From: a virus
Strand: one strand, 5' to 3'
Length of the DNA stretch: 17,970 nucleotides
UHGV virus genome: UHGV-0122840
A program made the position numbers and the translations under genes. The notes under the pieces were generated by a model. The model was not told where the DNA came from and made no database searches. It saw only the letters and a list, made by a program, of their open reading frames with translations. Shown here one piece after another: positions 7,009-17,937 of the stretch. Every line of letters starts with the position of its first letter. Positions within the stretch are counted from its first letter, which is position 1.

Positions 7009-7656
7009 TCATCCAAACGTCTCTTCAGGCCACTGAGCCTTAACTACCTTGCCTATGATGCGGCATGTGTGATCGCAGTCCAGGGTTCTGTATGCCGGAT
7101 TCAATGGAACCAAGTAACTAACCCCTGCATCCTTCTCATACTTCTTGAACGTTGCCTCTGAATCACCATTTGCAGAAGCCACGCAGAAATCCCCAGACTC
7201 TACCGGCTCGGCCGGATCAACGAGTATCAGCATACCCTCAGGAAAACTCGGCCTTACGCCCTGTGGCGCAGTCATAGAATGGCCTTTCACCTCAAGCCAG
7301 AAAGCTTTTTCGCTGGCTTTTGTGGTCGTTGGGACCCATGCCTTTGCATCGCTTGCTGTGTAGCTTCCAACCTCCGAAAACGGCCCGGCCTGCACTGAAG
7401 AAAATAACGGGTACTCATATTGGCGAAATACAGCGTCTGAATCCTCGCCAAACATTATTTTTGCCGGAGATACGCCGAGTGCCGCCCCAAGAACCAGCGC
7501 GTCATCCGCGCTAACCTTTCTTGTTCCTAACTCGTAGTTCCCCAGGCGTGAAGGCGCAGCCCAGCCGCAAAGCTTGGCCAATTGAGCCTGGCTAAGTCCT
7601 TTAGCTTCTCTAAGGGACTTGATCCTTTCCCCGATAATTTCATGCATCGTTTTCAT
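7009..7656 (-). CDS. cI: CI-type prophage repressor: N-terminal HTH_XRE domain plus C-terminal LexA-like S24 autopeptidase domain (215 aa)
   Basis: HTH region [23 protein letters not shown]24 catalytic Ser (GHSM) and Lys (IGKVVK) motifs. Divergent from cro across an operator region. Confidence 0.9.
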
Positions 7657-8451: not shown

Positions 8452-8598
8452 ATGACAAAACAACTCAGTCCTTACCAGGACAAAATTCACAAACGCATAC
8501 TACGTGATCGCTTCCTGTCCAGCTTCAAGCAGCCTGGTCGATTCCGGGCTGAGTTGGAAAAAGTGAAGCTGATGCAGAAGGAGAAAGGTCATGAGTAA
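8452..8598 (+). CDS. Possible small basic protein (48 aa, [21 protein letters not shown]...)
   Basis: AGGAG Shine-Dalgarno 5 nt before ATG; stop overlaps the O start by 8 nt. Below the ORF-track size cutoff. Confidence 0.4.
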
Positions 8599-9439
8599 TC
8601 TTGCAACCGTAACACATTTAAGGCCTTCACAACGTCGTGTGGCAGAAGTTGAAGATGGTTATACCCGTCTTGCAAATGCCCTGTATGAAGAGCTTATCGG
8701 CGCAGATTTAACAAAAAATCAGAGCAAGGTTGCCCACGCCATATGCCGTAAAACATACGGATACGGTAAAAAGATGGATCGCATCTCTGATAGTCAGTTA
8801 GCTCAAATTACCAGGCTGCCAAGACAGAAGGTAAACAAGGCCAAGAATGAGCTTATCGCGATGAAGGTAATCCTTCGCGAAGGCCAGCAAATCGGGCCTA
8901 ACAAGAACATCGAGGAATGGCAAATCGAAGGGTGTCACTACTCTGGTGATAATGTCACTGCATTGGTGACAAAAAGTGTCACCAAAACGGTGACAGCGCT
9001 GTCACCAAAACAGGGACACACAAAAGAAACTATTACAAAAGAAAAAAGAAATAATAAAAACACTATGTCCGAAAGTGTTCGGACGGAGTGTGAAAAATCA
9101 TCTGACCGTCACGAAGAAACCGACAAGGCATTCGAGGAAATATTCTGGTGTGCAGGCATGCGGAAAGCCGGGAAAAAAAACGCAGCTTCGGCATTCAGAA
9201 CACAGTTCAGGGAATGGCGTAAAACTACCAGGGGTACGGCAAGCGAGTTTGCCACGATGCTGGCAGAAGACATCGCATGCAGGAATGGTAAGCAGTTCGG
9301 ATTCGACAGGTTGTTACCATCGAGCTACCTGAACGGTCAACGCTGGAACGACGAGAAGCCAGAAACTATTCAACCGCAACCCAAACCATCATCCGCAATC
9401 ACCGTATCGAAAACTGGCTACGTGTTTTTCGACAGGTGA
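8591..9439 (+). CDS. O: Replication initiator O-like protein (282 aa), lambda O-type N-terminal domain
   Basis: N-terminal similarity to lambda O ([14 protein letters not shown]...[10 protein letters not shown]...[24 protein letters not shown]...GPNKNI). Iterons and an AT-rich tract lie inside the gene, as for ori-lambda. Confidence 0.85.
8950..9065. repeat. Putative replication origin inside the O gene: clustered GGTGACA / TGTCACC iterons followed by an A+T-rich tract
   Basis: Sequence reads TGTCACTGCATTGGTGACAAAAAGTGTCACCAAAACGGTGACAGCGCTGTCACCAAAAC, then ACAAAAGAAACTATTACAAAAGAAAAAAGAAATAATAAAAACAC. Confidence 0.6.
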
Positions 9440-9442
9440 ACC

Positions 9443-9550
9443 ATGAGATCCAGAATCAAATCGTTACTTATCGCTGGCTATAACCATGGCTGGCTTAGTT
9501 CTGCATTCGTTGAGTTCTGGTTTAACCGTCTCGATCTGAGGTCAGCGTAA
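9443..9550 (+). CDS. Possible 35-aa coupling ORF between O and the primase-helicase
   Basis: AGGTGA Shine-Dalgarno before ATG; stop overlaps the helicase ATG (TAATG). Speculative. Confidence 0.3.
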   Translation: MRSRIKSLLIAGYNHGWLSSAFVEFWFNRLDLRSA

Positions 9551-11430
9551 TGACTCCAAGTGAACTGAGCGACCTGCTTTGGGCGCAGGTTGACAGGGTG
9601 GCTCCGCACCTGTTGCCAAACGGCAAGAAAGAGGGGCATGAGTGGGTTGCCGGTAACGTCAACGGTGACAAGGGAAACAGCCTTAAGGTCAACCTTAGCG
9701 GCAAGAAAAAATGGGCTGATTTCGCTGAGGGAGACGGCGGTGACATGCTTGATTTGTGGATGGCATGTCGTGGAATTAACCTGCATCAGGCTATGCAGGA
9801 AGCGAAAGCATTTCTCGGTATCAAGGATGACGATCACCATTTCGATGCCAAACGTGAGAAAAAATTCTCCAGACCTGATCGCAAGAAAATCGCCCGCTAC
9901 GTTACCAGAACAGAATCCCATCTTGAGTACCTGCAATCGCGTGGCATATCGCCAGAAATCGTAAAGCGCTACGAGGTTGTCAGCGGCAAGGTGTGGAATG
10001 GAGAGCGGGAACTGGATGCTCTGGTGATTCCGTACAAACGCGATGGTGAGTTGTTGCAGGTCAAGCGAATCAGCACTGAGCGCCCGGACGGGAAGAAAGT
10101 CATTATGGCAGAAGGTGATTGCGAACCTTGCCTGTTCGGATGGCAGGCTCTGGACGCTGGCGTGAGGGCGGTTGTACTTTGCGAAGGCGAAATTGATTGT
10201 ATGAGCTATGCGCAATACGGCATCTCGGCGTTATCCGTGCCGTTTGGTGGCGGGAAAGGCGCTAAGCAACAGTGGATTGAGTTTGAGTATCACAACCTCG
10301 ACAGGTTTGAGGAAATATTCATCTCGATGGACGTTGATGATGTTGGTCGTGAAGCCGCAAGGGAAATCGCAAGCCGACTCGGTGAACATCGTTGCCGTCT
10401 TGTTACTCTGCCGTACAAAGACATCAATGAATGCCTGATGAACAGTGTTACCGAGGATGAAATCTGGCAGTACATCGGCACGGCATCCTACTTCGACCCT
10501 GAAGAACTCTACAGCGCGCGCGAGTTTTACCAGGACACTATCAACGCTTTCTACGGCAAGCAGCAGTATCTGTTTAATCCACCGTGGGAATCTCTGGCAG
10601 ATAAATTCCAGTTCCGTGAGGCAGAGTTGACGCTGGTCAATGGTGTGAACGGTCACGGAAAAACGGAGGTTGTCGGGCATATGGCACTTGAGGCAATGCG
10701 TCAGGGTGTGAAGACGTGCATCGCGTCACTTGAGCTGAAGCCTGGTATTCTCCTTAAGCGCCTTACCCGTCAGGCGACGTGCTGCAAGATGCCGCCAGTG
10801 CTGGAAATTGACTCTGCATTTAAATTTTATGACGAAAGACTTTGGGTGTTTGGCCTGACCGGAACGGCGAAAGCCGACAGGCTGATCGAAATATTCGACT
10901 ACGCTCGCCGCCGATACGGGATCCAGTTATTCATCATCGACAGCCTGATGAAATGTGGCATAGGCGACGATGACTATAACGGGCAGAAGGCGTTTGTTGA
11001 CTCGATTTGCGACTTCAAAAACAAAACAAACTCCCACGTCATTCTCGTTACTCACTCGCGAAAAGGAGACAGCGAAGAAAAACCAACCGGGAAAATGGAC
11101 GTAAAAGGCTCTGGAGCGATAACAGACCTGACAGACAACCTTTTCATCATCTGGCGTAACAAGGCTCGCGAGAGAGCGTTACAGAGAGTTCAGAGTGGTG
11201 AAAAGATGTCAGAGAAGGACGAACAGCTACTGGCATCTCCGGCATCTGTTTTGATGCTTGAAAAACAACGTAACGGCGAAGGTTGGGAAGGTGGTGTCCC
11301 GTTGTTCCTTGACGAGCAATCGCACCAGTTCCTGCAACTTGAATCAGGATCGCCATATAGCTACATCGCCAATATGCCGAAATCGGAATATGACGAGGCG
11401 TGGCGACAGGAAAACGTGACGGAGTATTAA
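9550..11430 (+). CDS. Bifunctional DNA primase / replicative helicase (626 aa): central TOPRIM-like region, C-terminal DnaB/RecA-type P-loop NTPase
   Basis: Walker A VNGVNGHGKTE and Walker B LFIIDSLMK in the C-terminal half; TOPRIM-like acidic motif (VVLCEGEIDCMSYAQYG) upstream. Occupies the lambda P position. Confidence 0.85.
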   Translation: MTPSELSDLLWAQVDRVAPHLLPNGKKEGHEWVAGNVNGDKGNSLKVNLSGKKKWADFAEGDGGDMLDLWMACRGINLHQAMQEAKAFLGIKDDDHHFDAKREKKFSRPDRKKIARYVTRTESHLEYLQSRGISPEIVKRYEVVSGKVWNGERELDALVIPYKRDGELLQVKRISTERPDGKKVIMAEGDCEPCLFGWQALDAGVRAVVLCEGEIDCMSYAQYGISALSVPFGGGKGAKQQWIEFEYHNLDRFEEIFISMDVDDVGREAAREIASRLGEHRCRLVTLPYKDINECLMNSVTEDEIWQYIGTASYFDPEELYSAREFYQDTINAFYGKQQYLFNPPWESLADKFQFREAELTLVNGVNGHGKTEVVGHMALEAMRQGVKTCIASLELKPGILLKRLTRQATCCKMPPVLEIDSAFKFYDERLWVFGLTGTAKADRLIEIFDYARRRYGIQLFIIDSLMKCGIGDDDYNGQKAFVDSICDFKNKTNSHVILVTHSRKGDSEEKPTGKMDVKGSGAITDLTDNLFIIWRNKARERALQRVQSGEKMSEKDEQLLASPASVLMLEKQRNGEGWEGGVPLFLDEQSHQFLQLESGSPYSYIANMPKSEYDEAWRQENVTEY

Positions 11431-11512
11431 ATGACCATCTACATCACTGAGCTAATAGCAGGGTTATCGTTACTAATGGTTCTTACTGTATATATTATTA
11501 AGTATATTCTTT

Positions 11513-12124
11513 ATGCGAATAAAAAAACCAATTGATCACGATGAGCTTCTGTCAACATTATCATATGACTCAGAAACAGGAATATTTAAATGGCTAAAAA
11601 CAAATTCAGTAGTAAGAGTAAAAGGTAGTATTGCTGGAGGTGTTAGTGGTGGTTATATATGCATTAGCATAAATAATGTTTTGTATTATGCGCATAGGCT
11701 TGCTTGGTTCTATGTATACAAAAAATGGCCTCCTAAGTTTATTGATCATGTAAATGGGAACAGACTTGACAATAGGATTTCAAATCTAAGACTGGCAACA
11801 GAGGAGCAGAATGCAAGAAACATTGTAGGGAATAGGTTAAACACATCCGGTGCGATTGGAGTGTCTTGGGATAAGACAACTGGCAGGTGGAAGTCTTATG
11901 TTGGTTATAAAAATAAGACAATATCGTTAGGGTATTTCGATAGCAAAGAAGATGCAGCATTCATAGCAGCACTAGCAAGAAAGAAACTATATGGAACTTA
12001 TGCGAGTAAAGCACTTAATTGCGAGCATGAGCTTTTATCTCAATTTAATAATGATGAGGATAAACTTGCGGAATATCTTAAGGAAAAATCTAAAAGGACT
12101 CGAAAGCGTGTTAAAAAAAGATAA
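11513..12124 (+). CDS. HNH homing endonuclease with AP2-type DNA-binding domain (203 aa)
   Basis: HNH motif region HRLAWFYVY...FIDHVNGNRLDNRISNLRLATEEQNARN, then AP2-like GVSWDKTTGRWKSYVGYKNKTISLGYFDSKEDAA. Free-standing between the replication and nin modules. Confidence 0.8.
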   Translation: MRIKKPIDHDELLSTLSYDSETGIFKWLKTNSVVRVKGSIAGGVSGGYICISINNVLYYAHRLAWFYVYKKWPPKFIDHVNGNRLDNRISNLRLATEEQNARNIVGNRLNTSGAIGVSWDKTTGRWKSYVGYKNKTISLGYFDSKEDAAFIAALARKKLYGTYASKALNCEHELLSQFNNDEDKLAEYLKEKSKRTRKRVKKR

Positions 12125-12156
12125 AGGCCTGCTGGTAATCGCAGGCCTTTTTATTT
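12125..12156 (+). terminator. Intrinsic terminator after the first HNH gene (AGGCCTGC ... GCAGGCCT then T-run)
   Basis: Perfect 8-bp stem, 8-nt loop, then TTTTTATTT directly after the stop codon. Confidence 0.65.
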
Positions 12157-12171
12157 GGGGGAGGGTAAATT

Positions 12172-12378
12172 GTGGCTGAGTTAATTTTCTCTGCATTGAG
12201 GATTCTCGGTGCTATGTGGATGGTGGCGACGTTCATTGTTGTTGCCAGCAGTTTTGTCCGGTTGGTAGGCGAAGGTAAAGACCTGGTGGGTGTGCTTTTC
12301 GGTAGCATTTTCCTGTGGGTGATTATCGGTGTTATGCCTGTCGCTGTAGCAAAAATGGCGTGGCGTTTTGTGAGTTGA
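12172..12378 (+). CDS. Small membrane protein (68 aa, two predicted transmembrane helices)
   Basis: GTG start preceded by GGGGGAGGG Shine-Dalgarno. Hydrophobic helices AMWMVATFIVVASSF and VLFGSIFLWVIIGVMPVAVA. Confidence 0.5.
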   Translation: MAELIFSALRILGAMWMVATFIVVASSFVRLVGEGKDLVGVLFGSIFLWVIIGVMPVAVAKMAWRFVS

Positions 12379-12395
12379 ACTGAGGGTAAGTATCG

Positions 12396-12674
12396 ATGGA
12401 CGAATCAAGAAAGCAGTTTGAAGAATGGTGGTCAAAAGACAAAAGCCAGTTTACAGAAGACGATGAATTAAAAGAGTTTGCCTGGGTGATATGGCAGGCA
12501 TCACGAGCAGCTATTGAACTGGATATCGACTGGCCCGAATCGAATGACGACTTTTGGAAAGATGGTGAAGAAGGTGCTTATGCGATGGGTTATGAGGATG
12601 GGCGTGACAAAACGGTAATTGCAGTAATGAAAGCCATCAGGGCCGCAGGAATCAAAGAAAAGAATTTCGATTAA
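12396..12674 (+). CDS. Hypothetical acidic protein (92 aa)
   Basis: ORF track; co-oriented in the nin region; no recognisable domain. Confidence 0.55.
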   Translation: MDESRKQFEEWWSKDKSQFTEDDELKEFAWVIWQASRAAIELDIDWPESNDDFWKDGEEGAYAMGYEDGRDKTVIAVMKAIRAAGIKEKNFD

Positions 12675-12806
12675 GCAAATATCACTTCAATAAATCGCTT
12701 TTAAGGTATCACAATCGCTCTGTAGTGAGGTAAACGCGTGCAAGGTACGCCAATAAGCAGCGAGAATGAAAAATGCGTCAGAATGCGTTTGAGGAGGTTT
12801 TAAGAA

Positions 12807-13034
12807 ATGAGTACGATAGCTGAGCTTGTCCGCGCCGACTTTCAGGAGAACATTGGCCGTGCAAAGCGGTACTGGTCTGCTTCCAGACTTCCTACTGACG
12901 AGAGACAGAAAAGCGCCCCTAAGCCACGGAGCTATCCGCGTGACCGTGTTCTTCGTCGGTTGGTTAAAATCGATAATGATTTTCAGTGTGACAGAATTAT
13001 CCAGCAATTAGATTTGATGACTGATGATGAATGA
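12807..13034 (+). CDS. Hypothetical protein (75 aa)
   Basis: Strong GAGGAGG Shine-Dalgarno 8 nt upstream of ATG; ends overlapping the ninB start. Confidence 0.5.
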   Translation: MSTIAELVRADFQENIGRAKRYWSASRLPTDERQKSAPKPRSYPRDRVLRRLVKIDNDFQCDRIIQQLDLMTDDE

Positions 13035-13449
13035 TTTCATTCTGCACGAAACCAATAAATCACAATTCTGGTTAGTTCTGAAACAAATCCTTTCTACCGG
13101 CAAGCGCTGGCGAATCAAAATATCTGAGTACCGTGAGAAGCGTACATTGTCACAAAACAATCTGATGTGGGTGTGGAATGCAGAAATAGCCGCGCAATTA
13201 TCCGCTGTTTCTGGTGAAAGTTTTACACCGGAAGAGGTTCATGAGTGGCTGAAAGATATATATTGTCCGGCAAAAAGGGTGACGATTTTTAATATTACAC
13301 GATGCGTTAAATCAACACGGCAGCTTGATATTGGAGATATGCACAAGTATCTGACCGATATTGACCAGTGGGCGCATCAGAAGGGATTACGACTAACTAT
13401 TCCTGATAATTGCGAGTACCGGGATCTAAAGGAGAGGCAAGTAGAGTGA
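13024..13449 (+). CDS. ninB: NinB-family recombination protein (141 aa)
   Basis: Family-level resemblance (R..LSQNNLMW motif region) and first position in the nin block; recalled from memory. Confidence 0.65.
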   Translation: MMNDFILHETNKSQFWLVLKQILSTGKRWRIKISEYREKRTLSQNNLMWVWNAEIAAQLSAVSGESFTPEEVHEWLKDIYCPAKRVTIFNITRCVKSTRQLDIGDMHKYLTDIDQWAHQKGLRLTIPDNCEYRDLKERQVE

Positions 13450-13973
13450 CAATTAAATCAAATACGCCAGCACACGACAAGGACTGCTGGCAAACGCCGC
13501 TTTGGCTTTTTGATGCACTGGATATTGAGTTTGGATTCTGGCTGGATTCGGCAGCGAGCGACAAAAATGCTCTGTGTGCTCACTGGCTAACTGAGGCCGA
13601 CGACGCGCTCAATTCTGAGTGGATAAGCCACGGTGCAATCTGGAATAACCCACCGTACAGCAATATCAGGCCGTGGGTGGAAAAAGCCGCTGAGCAGTGC
13701 ATACAACAGCGACAGACGGTAGTTATGCTTGTGCCAGAGGATATGTCAGTCGGATGGTTCAGCAAGGCTCTGGAGAGTGTCGACGAAGTTCGCATTATCA
13801 CTGATGGACGGATTAATTTTATCGAACCATCGACAGGGCTGGAGAAGAAGGGAAACAGCAAAGGCTCAATGCTGCTGATTTGGCGACCGTTCATCAGTCA
13901 TCGACGGATGTTTACTACCGTATCCAAAGCGGCATTGATGGCGATCGGGCAGGGCGTCAGGAGGGCGGCATGA
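13446..13973 (+). CDS. Phage N6-adenine DNA methyltransferase (Dam-like), about 175 aa
   Basis: Catalytic NPPY motif (IWNNPPYSN) and N-terminal [15 protein letters not shown] box typical of phage Dam-type enzymes. GTG start at 13446 overlaps the ninB stop (GTGA); the ATG at 13410 is an alternative start. Confidence 0.8.
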
Positions 13974-14152
13974 GACGACAGCGACGAAGTATCACCGACA
14001 TCATCTGCGAAAACTGCAAATCCCTTCCAACGAAACGCTCCAGAAATAAACGCAAGCCAATCCCAAAAGAATCTGATGTAAAAACCTTCAACTACACGGC
14101 TCACCTGTGGGATATCCGGTGGCTTAGAGAACGTGCGAGGAAAACAAGGTGA
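13970..14152 (+). CDS. ninE: NinE (60 aa)
   Basis: Translation [52 protein letters not shown]... matches recalled lambda NinE. AGGAGG Shine-Dalgarno; ATGA overlap with the methyltransferase stop. Confidence 0.7.
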
Positions 14153-14319
14153 TTGACCAAAATCGAAGTTACGAACAAGAAAGCGTCGAGCGAGCTTTAA
14201 CGTGCGCTAACTGCGGTCAGAAGCTGCATGTGCTGGAAGTTCACGTGTGTGAGCTCTGCTGTGCAGAACTGATGAGCGATCCGAATAGCTCAATGTACGA
14301 GGAAGAAGACGATGGCTAA
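14149..14319 (+). CDS. ninF: NinF (56 aa, zinc-finger-like CxxC...CxxC)
   Basis: Translation ...[46 protein letters not shown] matches recalled lambda NinF. GTG start overlaps the ninE stop. Not in the ORF track because it is under 60 aa. Confidence 0.65.
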
Positions 14320-14923
14320 ACCAGCGCGAAGACGATGTAAAAACGATGAATGTCGGGAATGGTTTCACCCTGCATTCGCCAATCAGTGGTGGTGCTCTCC
14401 AGAGTGTGGAACCAAGATAGCACTCGAACGACGAAGCAAAGAACGCGAAAAAGCGGAAAAGGAAGTAGAGAAGAAACGACGACGAGAGGAGCAGAAACAG
14501 AAAGATAAACTTAAGATTCGAAAACTCGCCTTAAAGCCCCGCAGTTACTGGATTAAACAAGCCCAACAAGCCGTAAACGCCTTCATCAGAGAAAGAGACC
14601 GCGACTTACCATGTATCTCGTGCGGAACGCTCACGTCTGCTCAGTGGGATGCCGGGCATTACCGGACAACTGCTGCGGCACCTCAACTCCGATTTGATGA
14701 ACGCAATATTCACAAGCAATGCGTGGTGTGCAACCAGCATAAAAGCGGAAATCTCGTTCCGTATCGCGTCGAACTGATTAACCGGATCGGGCAGGAAGCA
14801 GTAGACGAAATCGAATCAAACCATAACCGCCATCGCTGGACTGTCGAAGAGTGCAAGGCGATCAAGGCAGAGTGCCAACAGAAACTCAAAGACCTGCGAA
14901 ATAGCAGAAGTGAGGCCGCATGA
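14312..14923 (+). CDS. ninG: NinG / Rap recombination-associated endonuclease (203 aa)
   Basis: Near-identical over its full length to recalled lambda NinG (MAKPARR...[34 protein letters not shown]...). Confidence 0.9.
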
Positions 14924-15126
14924 CGTTCTCAGTAAAAACCATTCCAGACATGCTCGTTGAAGCATACGGAAACCAGACAGAAGTAGCACGCAGACTGAAA
15001 TGTAGTCGCGGTACGGTCAGAAAATACGTTGATGATAAAGACGGGAAAATGCACGCCATCGTCAACGACGTTCTCATGGTTCATCGCGGATGGAGTGAAA
15101 GAGATGCGCTATTACGAAAGAATTGA
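14920..15126 (+). CDS. ninH: NinH (68 aa)
   Basis: Size and sequence ([37 protein letters not shown]...) match recalled lambda NinH; ATGA overlap with ninG. Confidence 0.8.
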
Positions 15127-15775
15127 TGGCAGCAAATACCGAAATATTTGGGTAGTTGGCGATCTGCACGGATGCTACACGAACCTGATGAAAAAACTGG
15201 AGACGATAGGATTCGACACCAAAAAAGACCTGCTTATCTCGGTTGGCGATTTGGTCGATCGCGGTACAGAGAACGTCGAATGCCTGGAATTAATCACATT
15301 CCCCTGGTTCAGAGCTGTACGTGGAAACCATGAGCAAATGATGATTGATGGCTTATCAGAGCGCGGAAACGTCAATCACTGGATGCTTAATGGCGGTGGC
15401 TGGTTCTTTAATCTCGATTACGACAAAGAAATTCTGGCTAAAGCTCTTGCCCATAAAGCAGATGAACTTCCGTTAATCATCGAACTGGTGAGCAAAGATA
15501 AAAAATATGTCATCTGCCACGCCGATTATCCTTGTGACGAATACGAGTTTGGAAAGCCAGTTGATCATCAGCAGGTAATCTGGAACCGAGAACGAATCAG
15601 CAACTCACAAGACGGGATCGTGAAAGAAATTAAAGGCGCGGACACGTTCATCTTTGGTCATACGCCAGCAGTGAAACCGCTCAAATTTGCCAACCAGATG
15701 TATATCGATACCGGCGCAGTGTTCTGCGGAAAGCTCACATTGATTCAGGTACAGGGAGAAGGCGCGTGGGCATAA
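15103..15775 (+). CDS. ninI: NinI serine/threonine protein phosphatase (lambda PPase family), 224 aa
   Basis: Metallophosphatase motifs GDLHGCY, GDLVDRG, GNHE. Start at [12 protein letters not shown] with GGAG Shine-Dalgarno 7 nt upstream; the ORF-track start at 15029 lies inside ninH. Confidence 0.85.
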
Positions 15776-16284
15776 GAGAACTAAACCTCACCAAAGAACA
15801 GCATGAGTGGCTGAATGGCTGGCTTGAACTGTGGGGCGCATGGGTTTATTCAGGTCGTCTGGAAAAGCGCATGAGCAGCGTAATAGCGAAGTTCATGGAG
15901 AGCGTAGAGCCGGGAAGAGTTATGACAAGGCCAATGTGTAATGATGATGATGGAATGTTGATTTCTCAGGTCGTCGATTCCGTCATGTACATTGACAAGA
16001 AAGCCTTTGGCATCCTCCTCAGCTACTACGCTCATGGTTCATCTAAGCGAGCAATTGCATCCTACTATCACGCGACTGCAAAGCCACGCAAGATGTGTGG
16101 ACGTGGTGGCGAGGGATGGAGAAAACCTTCAATGGCAACCTGTAGAAACGAAATTGACGACATCCTGAAAGCGTCGTTATTTGTTTTGTACCAGCCAATG
16201 CAAAATGCTTTCAAAATGCGTAAACGTGTTGAGAAAGTTAAGCATGTTGCTGTTAAAAGCCTTGACATGCAATTATCTATTTAG
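15766..16284 (+). CDS. Late-gene antiterminator Q (172 aa; not lambda-Q type, possibly Q21/Q82-like)
   Basis: Position directly after ninI and immediately upstream of a promoter plus terminator pair. GTG start with GGGAGAAGG Shine-Dalgarno. Assignment is positional; the sequence is not lambda Q. Confidence 0.65.
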
Positions 16285-16291
16285 CCATAAT
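16262..16291 (+). promoter_or_regulatory. PR'-like late promoter (TTGACA, 18 nt, CATAAT) overlapping the 3' end of Q; likely Q-binding/qut region
   Basis: Consensus -35 hexamer and near-consensus -10, with a terminator about 40-65 nt downstream. Confidence 0.5.
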
Positions 16292-16331
16292 ATTCACATA
16301 TGCTGCTGCTTTTGCATTCAGCAACCATCAC

Positions 16332-16358
16332 AAGCCCACCTCCTGTGGGCTTTTTTGC
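16332..16358 (+). terminator. tR'-like intrinsic terminator (AAGCCCAC CUCCU GUGGGCUU then U6)
   Basis: Perfect 8-bp stem, 5-nt loop, then TTTTTT, about 45-65 nt downstream of the candidate PR' -10. Confidence 0.65.
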
Positions 16359-16478
16359 ATTCGCGTGCAATCAAAACAAGAGTCTTAGTGATATGGGCCT
16401 GAGATATGGTGGTGGAAACATCGCTCCGCTCTTGGCTGTCATATCTACGCGAACAGGCTCTATCCCTAAGGTAAAGCG

Positions 16479-16991
16479 ATGAAAGAAATAAAATTAACGC
16501 CAGAAATGGTGCTTTCTGTTGTTGATTACAATCCATCATCAGGCGACTTTCACTGGAGATGGAGGCAGGGGAGAGAGAGGACCACTTTGACATGGAACTC
16601 TCGTTTTGCTTTCAAGAAATGCTCATCAATAAATTCTGATGGGTATTTAATGATTATGATTAATGGTAAAGCATGCCCTGCTCACAGACTGGCATGGTTG
16701 ATTGTTTATGGCACCATGCCCGATGGTTTTATTGATCACATCAACAGGGTAAGAACAGATAACCGGATATCAAATCTTCGTCTTGTCACTCATTCCGAAA
16801 ATATGCAAAACAGGAAAATTCAGAAGAATAATAAATCTGGATACCGTGGCGTGTCTTGGGATGCTAAGTACGGGAAATGGAGAGCAAGAATTAATGCGTC
16901 TGGAAAGTGTATTAACCTTGGATACCATGACACTGCCGAACTTGCCGCTGCGGCTTTTGAGGCAGCCAGAATGAAATATCATACCGTTTAA
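16479..16991 (+). CDS. HNH homing endonuclease with AP2-type domain (170 aa), diverged paralogue of the 11513-12124 gene
   Basis: Shares AHRLAW..VY..P..FIDH.N..R.DNRISNLRL.T..EN and GVSWD...G.W.......I.LGY.D..E.AA with the first HNH gene. AAGGT Shine-Dalgarno. Sits between tR' and the lysis genes. Confidence 0.8.
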   Translation: MKEIKLTPEMVLSVVDYNPSSGDFHWRWRQGRERTTLTWNSRFAFKKCSSINSDGYLMIMINGKACPAHRLAWLIVYGTMPDGFIDHINRVRTDNRISNLRLVTHSENMQNRKIQKNNKSGYRGVSWDAKYGKWRARINASGKCINLGYHDTAELAAAAFEAARMKYHTV

Positions 16992-17000
16992 AGATGTAAG

Positions 17001-17046
17001 CTGCCGTTAGTGACTCTTAAGTTGCAACGGTGGCTTTTTTATTTGC
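17001..17046 (+). terminator. Possible terminator after the second HNH gene (imperfect stem, T6 run)
   Basis: CTGCCGTT ... AACGGTGG stem with two wobble pairs and a long loop, followed by CTTTTTTATTT. Confidence 0.35.
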
Positions 17047-17366
17047 ACAACAGGTAAGAGCATTGAACCCGCAGACCTCGCGGAATTGGTGAAAGGTGCC
17101 GCGCAGTGCTCTTATCGTTGTGGTGAAGCTCAATGGCGAGCTAGCAGATAGGCGATAGTGAAAATACTAGTCATGTAGCTGACCGCCGCGCGTACTGCAA
17201 TCGGCAGCGCACCGATGGAAGCCGGTTCGATTCCGGTCGCCACAATCCAAACTGAGCCGTAGCCACTGGCTATCCTGAACTCATCAGTGATAGTTATGCT
17301 GCGGCCTTCTTTTTTCCCCTTCCCAATATAAGAACTACGCAATCCGTTACTGGCGGAGGCGTTGCT

Positions 17367-17582
17367 ATGAAATCAATGGACAAAATCTCAACTGGCATTG
17401 CCTACGGCACCTCCGCAGGCAGTGCTGGCTACTGGTTTTTACAGTGGCTTGATCAGGTCAGTCCGTCACAGTGGGCTGCGATTGGTGTACTGGGGAGTCT
17501 GGTTCTGGGCTTCCTGACTTATCTGACAAATCTGTACTTCAAAATCAGAGAAGACAAGCGTAAGGCTGCACGGGGAGAGTAA
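17367..17582 (+). CDS. S: Phage-21-type class II holin / pinholin S21 (71 aa) with dual-start motif MKSM
   Basis: Translation [71 protein letters not shown] matches S21 as recalled (two transmembrane domains, Met1 and Met4 starts). GGAGG Shine-Dalgarno. Confidence 0.9.
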
Positions 17583-17586
17583 TTCA

Positions 17587-17937
17587 ATGACTCAAAACTA
17601 TGAACTGATTGTGAAAGGGATCCGCAATTTTGAGAATAAAGTTACGGTAACTTTAGCGTTACGGGACAAAAAACGCTTTGACGGTGAAATTTTTGACCTG
17701 GACATCTCGCTGGACCGTGTTGAAGGTGCCGCGCTGGAGTTTTATGAGGCAGCAGCCAGAAGGAGCATCAGACAGGTCTTCCTGGATGTTGCTGCCGGGT
17801 TATGTGAAGGGGATGAGCAGTCGCCGGAAAAGCGCCCCGTAATTTTAGAGGCGCAGAATGTGTGGATAACCTACAAAGGAAAGCTACCAGGAATAATTAC
17901 TGGTTCTCTGAAGACTCCTCCGGAATCACAACATTAA
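17587..17937 (+). CDS. Hypothetical protein (116 aa) immediately downstream of the holin
   Basis: GGGGAGAG Shine-Dalgarno 7 nt before ATG and a 4-nt gap after the holin stop. No lysozyme, SAR or other recognisable motif. Confidence 0.6.
   Translation: MTQNYELIVKGIRNFENKVTVTLALRDKKRFDGEIFDLDISLDRVEGAALEFYEAAARRSIRQVFLDVAAGLCEGDEQSPEKRPVILEAQNVWITYKGKLPGIITGSLKTPPESQH

Follow-up and report, generated by a model that had tools for sequence, protein, structure and literature searches.

Two candidate homing endonuclease cassettes inserted at ninA/tR2 and in the pR'-tR' leader of a lambdoid Escherichia coli prophage

Results

Two diverged HNH-AP2 genes in a lambdoid prophage

The 17,970-nucleotide stretch of the virus genome UHGV-0122840 analysed here (the window) comes from a lambdoid Escherichia coli prophage, of which it covers the early-right region and the late leader. 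It contains two open reading frames (ORFs), HNH-1 and HNH-2, which a sequence-only reading had taken for homing endonuclease genes (HEGs) of the same HNH plus AP2 architecture, only partly identical and therefore probably inserted independently (Table 1). Pfam recognizes the HNH_3 domain in both products (57.8 bits for HNH-1 and 65.3 bits for HNH-2, cut-off 24.8) and also finds the AP2 domain (cut-off 33.3), with a score of 35.1 bits for HNH-2 and of 32.6 bits, just below the cut-off, for HNH-1. Both proteins match phrog_99, annotated 'HNH endonuclease', with an E-value of about 1e-72, as well as the AP2 domain of WRI1 in the PDB, and they share 40% identity across 161 residues (E 1e-30), in agreement with the proposed architecture and degree of divergence.

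The HNH motif was found in both proteins by alignment with I-HmuI (PDB 1u3e). Residues D74, H75 and N96 of I-HmuI correspond to D78, H79 and N100 of HNH-1 and to D86, H87 and N108 of HNH-2, and N87 corresponds to N91 and N99, respectively. In I-HmuI, D74 and H75 reportedly act as the catalytic Asp-His pair, while N87 and N96 are said to be metal-binding or structural. D78, H79, N87, N91 and N103 (HNH-1 numbering) are invariant in a 35-sequence alignment of the family, and D78, H79, N91 and N100, together with their HNH-2 counterparts, are invariant or nearly so in 35 homologues. The boxes HRLAW(LL), WP, D/H, DNR, NLR(E) and EN are present in HNH-1 (AHRLAWFYVYKKWPPKFIDHVNGNRLDNRISNLRLATEEQN) and HNH-2 (AHRLAWLIVYGTMPDGFIDHINRVRTDNRISNLRLVTHSEN), without CX2C dyads; the boxes HRLAW, WP, DH, DNR, NLR and EN define the 'HNN-AP2' type in Xanthomonas phages (PMC2248197). 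The predicted catalytic motif is thus intact in both proteins.

The AlphaFold model of HNH-1 (predicted local distance difference test score, 89; predicted template modelling score, 0.75) superimposes on chain 1u3e_M of I-HmuI in Foldseek with a probability of 1.00, over 106 columns with a root-mean-square deviation (rmsd) of 3.6 Å. Its C-terminal domain fits the AP2 domain of AtERF1 (1gcc) over 51 columns with an rmsd of 1.4 Å, and the model fits the AP2 domain of TEM1 (7et4) with an rmsd of 1.1 Å. HNH-1 is accordingly modelled as a beta-beta-alpha-metal fold preceded by an N-terminal DNA-binding sheet.

Element 1 lies within ninA, at the foot of the tR2 stem

Comparison with relatives that lack the inserts defined the boundaries of the segments carrying HNH-1 (element 1, 11463-12127) and HNH-2 (element 2, 16299-16996). 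A synthetic query made of the flanks of element 1 only retrieved many prophages with the same primase gene and with orf68 76 bp downstream, and no HNH gene. In the empty allele, GAGCTAATAACAGG is followed directly by CCTGCTGGTAATCGCAGGCCTTTTTATTT, and relative to L002-L004 and to lambda the 665-bp insertion is precise to the nucleotide. The lambda ren-ninB spacer (40570-40644) corresponds to the empty site. Element 1 therefore sits, as had been proposed, at the junction of the replication and nin modules, within the small gene ninA, its insertion point being the 5' foot of the tR2 stem. Its GC content of 35% contrasts with 46-51% in the neighbouring DNA.

The sequence-only reading had credited HNH-1 with its own terminator, which does not hold. 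An identical hairpin occurs in lambda at 40598-40625 and in every empty allele, so that the terminator following HNH-1 is resident and does not belong to element 1. In lambda this hairpin is tR2, and the ATG located 30 bp upstream of it is the start of ninA (PMC4824070, with reference to Kroger and Hobom 1982 and to Liu et al. 2013). The final bases of element 1 (...GATAAAGG) rebuild the tR2 stem and make it 10 instead of 8 bp long; the stop codon of HNH-1 overlaps its foot.

The insertion also rebuilds ninA, of which codons 1-11 are resident and the remainder, that is the C-terminal two thirds, is replaced by element 1. The rebuilt gene is annotated in HK022 as HK022_56. Empty alleles encode a NinA peptide of 24-30 amino acids (aa) of the form MTIYITELITGLLVIAGLFIWGR..., and the rebuilt C-terminus is likewise hydrophobic. 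The ATG of HNH-1 is located 23 nt inside the 3' end of the rebuilt ninA, and HNH-1 has no Shine-Dalgarno sequence. The gene, found in lambda at 40568-40648 (L007 1068-1148), is conserved as a short ORF reading through tR2. Six or more unrelated replication genes have a stop codon that overlaps its ATG or directly adjoins it, which puts the replication/nin mosaic joint exactly at the start of ninA. Common variants in ninA codons 1-8 are synonymous and the non-synonymous ones are rare singletons (8 versus 6 distinct variants).

A single nucleotide in the left flank is linked to occupancy: a G replaces A at 11458, five nucleotides left of the insertion point (-5), in 27 of 27 occupied alleles and in two of about 170 empty alleles examined (L246 and L064). 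These two empty alleles carry the commonest occupied haplotype and look like deletion scars formed across the flanking AGG repeat.

Element 2 separates pR' from the resident tR' terminator

The probable late promoter pR' keeps its position before hairpin B in relatives that lack element 2. In prophages lacking the element, hairpin B (TAAGCTGCCGTTAG...CAACGGTGGC plus a T tract) follows pR' by 7 nt or less, and the same hairpin lies no more than 5 nt downstream of the other Q/pR' type (...CACTAT TCGCA). In occupied alleles of both Q types, the same 698-bp segment stands directly before hairpin B. The boundaries were drawn by comparison with two empty alleles (L009 and L006) and with occupied alleles of the other Q type (L167, L173 and L190). 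They place the insertion at about position +3 of the transcript from pR', ahead of the tR' hairpin, which is resident.

Element 2 consists of the hexamer TATGCT, which has the same spacing as TAAGCT in the empty allele, followed by hairpin A with its T tract, a 120-nt leader and the HNH-2 ORF. Hairpin A is linked to HNH-2 in 41 of its 42 occurrences among the fetched loci, the exception being L005, and is a predicted terminator that the element brings along. HNH-2 is thus flanked by two strong predicted terminators, hairpins A and B. The earlier placement of HNH-2 between tR' and the lysis cassette is correct as to the Q/lysis junction and wrong as to the terminator, since the resident tR' lies downstream of the gene and the hairpin upstream of it is borne by the element. 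The seven nucleotides between pR' and element 2 (16292-16298) may be read as a co-converted donor flank.

Two alternative observations on this site were discarded. A boundary at 16359-17037, running from after hairpin A through hairpin B, rested on the rare allele L005, and a wider sample showed that hairpin A is part of the element and hairpin B resident; L005 looks like a scar left by loss of element 2 across the two T tracts. A variant (A or G) in the T tract after hairpin B does not track occupancy. The annotation of HK629 places a 'putative late promoter pR'' downstream of hairpin A (L287 2356-2471; JQ182735 42635-42750). Relatives lacking the element suggest, by comparison, that pR' is instead the TTGACA-N18-CATAAT sequence overlapping the end of Q, upstream of that hairpin.

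Table 1. Features of the window discussed in the text.
Feature	Position	Strand	Description
N antiterminator	5128-5472	minus
LexA-type cI	7009-7656	minus	followed by cro and cII
O	8591-9439
Toprim/DnaB-like primase-helicase	9550-11430		directly before the element 1 region
ninA homologue, rebuilt	11431-11535	+	34 codons, MTIYITELIAGLSLLMVLTVYIIKYILYANKKTN; ATG abuts the primase stop codon
G for A	11458	+	5 nt left of the insertion point (-5); linked to occupancy
Element 1	11463-12127	+	665-bp insertion, 35% GC, carries HNH-1; edges ambiguous by 3-nt AGG microhomology
HNH-1 ORF	11513-12124	+	203 aa, coordinates as in the sequence-only reading; I-HmuI-like N-terminal sheet, HNN nuclease, AP2 domain (about 113-163), basic C-terminal helix
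tR2 intrinsic terminator, resident	12123-12155	+	stem 12123-12150, then T tract
Q antiterminator	15766-16284		Pfam Phage_antitermQ
pR' late promoter, probable	16262-16291	+	TTGACA-N18-CATAAT, 11/12 consensus; overlaps the end of Q
ATTCACA	16292-16298	+	7 nt; differs from TAGAAGG in the empty allele of the same Q type; resembles ATTCGCA of the other Q type
Element 2	16299-16996	+	698-bp insertion (±2, TA ambiguity at the ends)
Hairpin A and T tract	16332-16357	+	stem-loop 16332-16352, upstream of HNH-2; z = -3.8
HNH-2 ORF	16479-16991	+	170 aa, coordinates as in the sequence-only reading; AP2 about 120-167; Shine-Dalgarno AAGG 7 nt upstream
Hairpin B and T tract	16998-17042	+	hairpin 16998-17036; resident tR'-type terminator
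P21-type holin	17367-17582

Both elements are sporadic and found in many backgrounds

Occupancy was counted in 5426 complete E. coli genomes, and further copies were taken from IMG/VR contigs. Element 1 was found at 138 places in 126 genomes, and every copy is close to full length with an identity of 95% or more. Since 2052 genomes together contain about 2992 ninA/tR2 sites, occupancy is about 5%. In IMG/VR, 25 contigs have the occupied left junction of element 1 and more than 120 have the empty junction. The insert is 665 bp long in 19 of the 21 loci where both junctions are readable and 666 bp in the other two (L001 and L019), in which an extra A in a run of seven (window 11521-11527) causes a frameshift. 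The 203-codon ORF is intact in 19 of these 21 copies, and truncated 'AP2 domain' fragments also exist (H194 and H195). In E. coli MS 196-1 (L001; the other named loci are VR50, L010; lambda, L007; and HK629, L287), RefSeq lists the HNH-1 copy (L001 13091-13534) as a pseudogene plus a separate 'AP2 domain-containing protein'. Element 1 has at its left six or more different ends of replication genes (toprim primase, DnaB-like helicases, ren and others) and at its right five or more different genes, and its carriers include the Shiga toxin (Stx)-converting prophages of O157:H7.

Element 2 is present in 39 of the 5426 genomes, and its resident neighbour hairpin B in 745. It was found behind two Q types and before at least four right contexts, and empty alleles occur behind both Q types (L009 and L006). 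The 170-codon HNH-2 ORF is intact in 34 of 35 readable IMG/VR copies. Neither gene is conserved at its position in all relatives, empty sites being far commoner than occupied ones. The two elements have no DNA similarity to each other, lie at different sites between different flanks and each have precise empty alleles, in line with the independent insertions put forward earlier. We conclude that these are two unrelated insertions of diverged members of one family, with exact boundaries, sporadic occurrence (about 5%), many genetic backgrounds and decayed copies.

HNH-1 proteins form a tight cluster of 521 sequences, and the next non-fragment relative (P0004) is 62% identical. P0004 was considered as a clue to the donor lineage and ruled out, as it joins about 66 N-terminal residues of HNH-1 to the product of a different HNH-AP2 gene at the site of element 1. 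In a Logan contig of SRR10380363, a chimeric HEG occupies this site (L288 5001-5516). Its first 66 residues or so and the upstream DNA are those of HNH-1, and the rest is another HNH-AP2 gene that runs straight into rusA, a structure indicating recombination inside the HEG itself.

Homing is the probable reason for this distribution

At the level of sequence, both elements present the features by which a mobile HEG is recognized in practice: a precise empty site, varied backgrounds, degenerate copies and putative loss scars. We therefore favour the reading that HNH-1 and HNH-2 belong to two independently acquired, free-standing HNN-AP2 HEG cassettes, with the sites, expression and homing mechanism described here, and give this reading a probability of roughly three in four.

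An unlikely alternative is that the elements are passive cargo, either HEG relics or non-homing nucleases, shuffled by Red/RecET-type recombination across short conserved flanks. Such flanks are available, since the 5' 32 nt of ninA, some 40 nt of tR2, and hairpin B together with the DNA that follows it are conserved in thousands of prophages. Lambdoid mosaicism at both the replication/nin and the Q/lysis junctions is well documented, and the low occupancy (about 5%) and the pseudogenized copies would fit as well. However, the preserved reading frames of nearly all HNH-1 and HNH-2 copies, with catalytic residues kept, would be unexpected for long-dead genes, and the very low diversity of the elements compared to that of their flanks suggests recent and rapid spread. 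Passive recombination would also have had to move element 2 between two Q types that share almost no homology on the left flank.

We consider it improbable that the genes are domesticated nucleases, directed either against rival phages or co-resident prophages, which would be exclusion without homing, or to a helper role in DNA metabolism or packaging. HEG-like nucleases have repeatedly been co-opted, as HK97 gp74, which works with terminase (PMC10448857), and HNH-2 is expected to be made late, alongside the lysis and packaging genes. Yet neither gene has the adjacency to terminase or cos, or the conservation, of the HK97 gp74 type: in L001, HNH-2 (17280-17792) is separated from terS (21265) by about 3.5 kb that includes the lysis genes. 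Moreover, about 95% of related prophages do without each gene, lambda does without both, and frameshifted copies are tolerated. PADLOC assigned neither protein to a defence system and returned just weak generic 'HEase' matches (E 1e-3 to 4e-6).

Hardly credible is the third possibility, that HNH-1 and HNH-2 are AP2-type DNA-binding regulators with a dead nuclease that modulate read-through at GC-rich terminator or leader DNA. Both genes do lie immediately 5' of GC-rich terminator stems, and AP2 domains favour GC-rich DNA (PMC10448857). Against this possibility stands the full Asp-His...Asn...Asn set conserved in both proteins and throughout the family, and the sporadic distribution speaks against a regulatory role that the phage requires.

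Several points weigh against the homing reading itself. No biochemical or genetic test of cleavage or homing was found in the literature for these proteins or their close relatives, and the AP2 score of HNH-1 is marginally under the Pfam cut-off. Both sites have conserved 'boundary' flanks, so that ordinary homologous recombination could be enough to disperse a passive cassette. Hitch-hiking, instead of a change in immunity, could account for the A-to-G change at -5, and the reading of 16292-16298 as a co-converted flank concerns 7 nt alone. Finally, each site must first have been entered by an illegitimate insertion, for which homing does not account.

A proposed mechanism for expression and homing

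A promoter scan of the plus strand found no sigma-70-like site inside either element, and the total number of matches in the region was below shuffle expectation. Since element 1 has no promoter, we infer that it would be transcribed with the N-antiterminated pR delayed-early operon, and since HNH-1 has no Shine-Dalgarno sequence, it would be translated weakly through coupling to ninA. A ribosome translating over the position of the tR2 stem foot has been reported to suppress tR2 (PMC4824070), and a ribosome at the HNH-1 stop codon may suppress it as well. In element 2, TAnGCT may act as a -10-like promoter-proximal pause element. HNH-2 would be silent in the lysogen and made solely under Q antitermination during lytic growth, the same lysogen-silent, Q-dependent expression as that of the stx genes in Stx phages.

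In the lytic cycle, each enzyme would nick or cut an allele that lacks the element, whether in a co-infecting phage or in a co-resident prophage; HNH-1 would probably act at the ninA/tR2 site and HNH-2 at the pR'-tR' leader site. Repair of the break by phage recombination, with the element-bearing copy as template, would transfer the cassette along with neighbouring markers to the cut genome. Immunity of the carrier would follow from disruption of the site by the insertion and, for element 1, possibly also from the linked A-to-G change at -5. By analogy with known systems, marker exclusion and homing are both plausible.

The same genes in other phages and the wider family

Both genes have counterparts at the same positions in known phages. 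HK022_57 of HK022 (AF069308 32436-33047), annotated as hypothetical, encodes HNH-1 with 98.4% protein identity and is located between the replication gene P and the nin genes; that P is of the P22-type, DnaB-like, and the window has a toprim primase-helicase instead. HK629_061 of HK629 (JQ182735 42780-43292), annotated 'HNH endonuclease', encodes HNH-2 with 99.4% identity and lies between Q and the holin gene. A literature search for descriptions of these HK022 and HK629 genes as homing endonucleases returned nothing specific. More distant homologues, below 60% identity, were found by tblastn in more than 3400 phage records, including T7 gene 3.8, T1, T5-like and Felix O1-like phages and ICP1.

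HNH plus AP2 is an acknowledged HEG family, and HEGs are noted to sit at boundaries of genetic exchange (PMC10448857); HNH-AP2 homing endonucleases have been described at least since 2004 (Magnani et al. 2004, as cited in PMC10448857). The closest system is that of the HNN-AP2 HEGs of phages, cyanobacteria and ciliates (PMC10448857), with examples in Xp10, OP1 and Xop411 (PMC2248197) and the IPA-HNH proteins of ICP1. Like these, HNH-1 and HNH-2 combine an N-terminal HNN nuclease bearing the same boxes and no Cys dyads with a C-terminal AP2 domain; they are free-standing, about 170-200 codons long, present as several diverged copies per genome, with degenerate copies besides, and located at exchange boundaries. 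Unlike them, they reside in a temperate lambdoid prophage, and their sites are regulatory DNA (ninA/tR2 and the pR' leader) and not positions beside polymerase, ribonucleotide reductase or terminase genes. The IPA-HNH domains of ICP1 are too diverged for Pfam HNH_3, for which HNH-1 and HNH-2 score strongly.

I-HmuI, the intron-encoded nicking homing endonuclease of SPO1, has the N-terminal antiparallel sheet and the beta-beta-alpha-metal core in common with the HNH-1 model, and its sequence similarity to HNH-1 and HNH-2 is marginal (E 0.4-0.8). It is encoded by an intron and ends in a helix-turn-helix in place of the AP2 domain. The Seg and Mob HEGs of T4-type phages are likewise intergenic, free-standing and polymorphic for presence and absence, and flank co-conversion is expected for them. 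They are GIY-YIG enzymes or HNH enzymes with a zinc finger, reside in virulent phages and have been shown by experiment to cleave DNA and to cause exclusion.

MS 196-1 carries a third HNH_3 plus AP2 gene (L001 14581-15147; 188 aa, 39% GC) in the 5' end of ninG. This gene takes over the first nine codons of ninG (MAKPARRRC) and is followed by a replacement ninG start. The window is the empty allele for this site (14312-14404), of which 14341-14404 is replaced by 596 nt in L001.

Neighbouring genes and nearest genomes

The genes 3' of the primase-helicase are, in order, HNH-1, orf68, a phiTE_015-family gene, ninB and a Dam methylase gene, followed by ninE, ninF, ninG, ninH, a NinI phosphatase gene, Q, HNH-2 and the holin gene. 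The prophage also encodes recombination functions, namely Abc2 and an AAA_24 protein. The product of orf68 (window 12172-12378) is a hydrophobic 68-aa protein, DUF7301-like in VR50 and without a Pfam match. In many prophages orf68 and element 1 move as a unit whose right boundary is at 12378, and orf68 also adjoins empty sites.

The nearest complete genomes with both HNH genes are those of strains MS 196-1 and VR50. In VR50, an IS3-family insertion sequence lies between the primase gene and HNH-1 (L010 2464-3692). The prophage with that copy carries an identical HNH-2, and its structural genes are P22-like, not lambda-like.

The interval from hairpin B to the holin gene contains a tRNA-like 3' remnant (window 17190-17248; GGTTCGATTCCGG... 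T arm). ARAGORN called no tRNA in its search, and Rfam found only this tRNA/tmRNA-like remnant (tmRNA, transfer-messenger RNA), as a sub-threshold tmRNA hit (13.4 bits, E 0.028). In relatives, tRNA-Thr and tRNA-Asn are annotated in the corresponding interval.

Discussion

The HNH-AP2 kind and both genes were already known and annotated in databases and in phage genomes (HK022 and HK629). Novelty is therefore low and the gain in knowledge modest, and the insertion anatomy is the sole modestly new part. It offers an example of a selfish gene entering a tightly regulated operon with the terminators unbroken, and both elements are clean markers of recent exchange between prophages.

A broader proposal, which we regard as speculative and put forward with some doubt, is that lambdoid HNN-AP2 HEGs are specialized for conserved regulatory DNA, that they bring 'patches' by which the invaded operon stays functional, and that their breaks are a major cause of mosaic junctions. 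If so, the favoured sites would be the stems of intrinsic terminators, such as tR2, and the leaders of operons, such as pR'-tR'. The patches would be, for element 1, a different C-terminus of NinA and the regenerated tR2 stem, for the late leader a substitute pause element and a terminator, and at the third site a new NinG N-terminus, and the breaks would be largely behind the replication/nin and Q/lysis joints of lambdoid phages, including Stx phages.

On the homing reading itself, active enzymes would bias, at every encounter between lambdoid phages, which neighbouring replication, nin, Q and lysis modules are inherited, also where the Stx-converting prophages of O157:H7 that carry element 1 are involved, and active homing would help explain the mosaic joints of these phages at ninA/tR2 and pR'-tR'.

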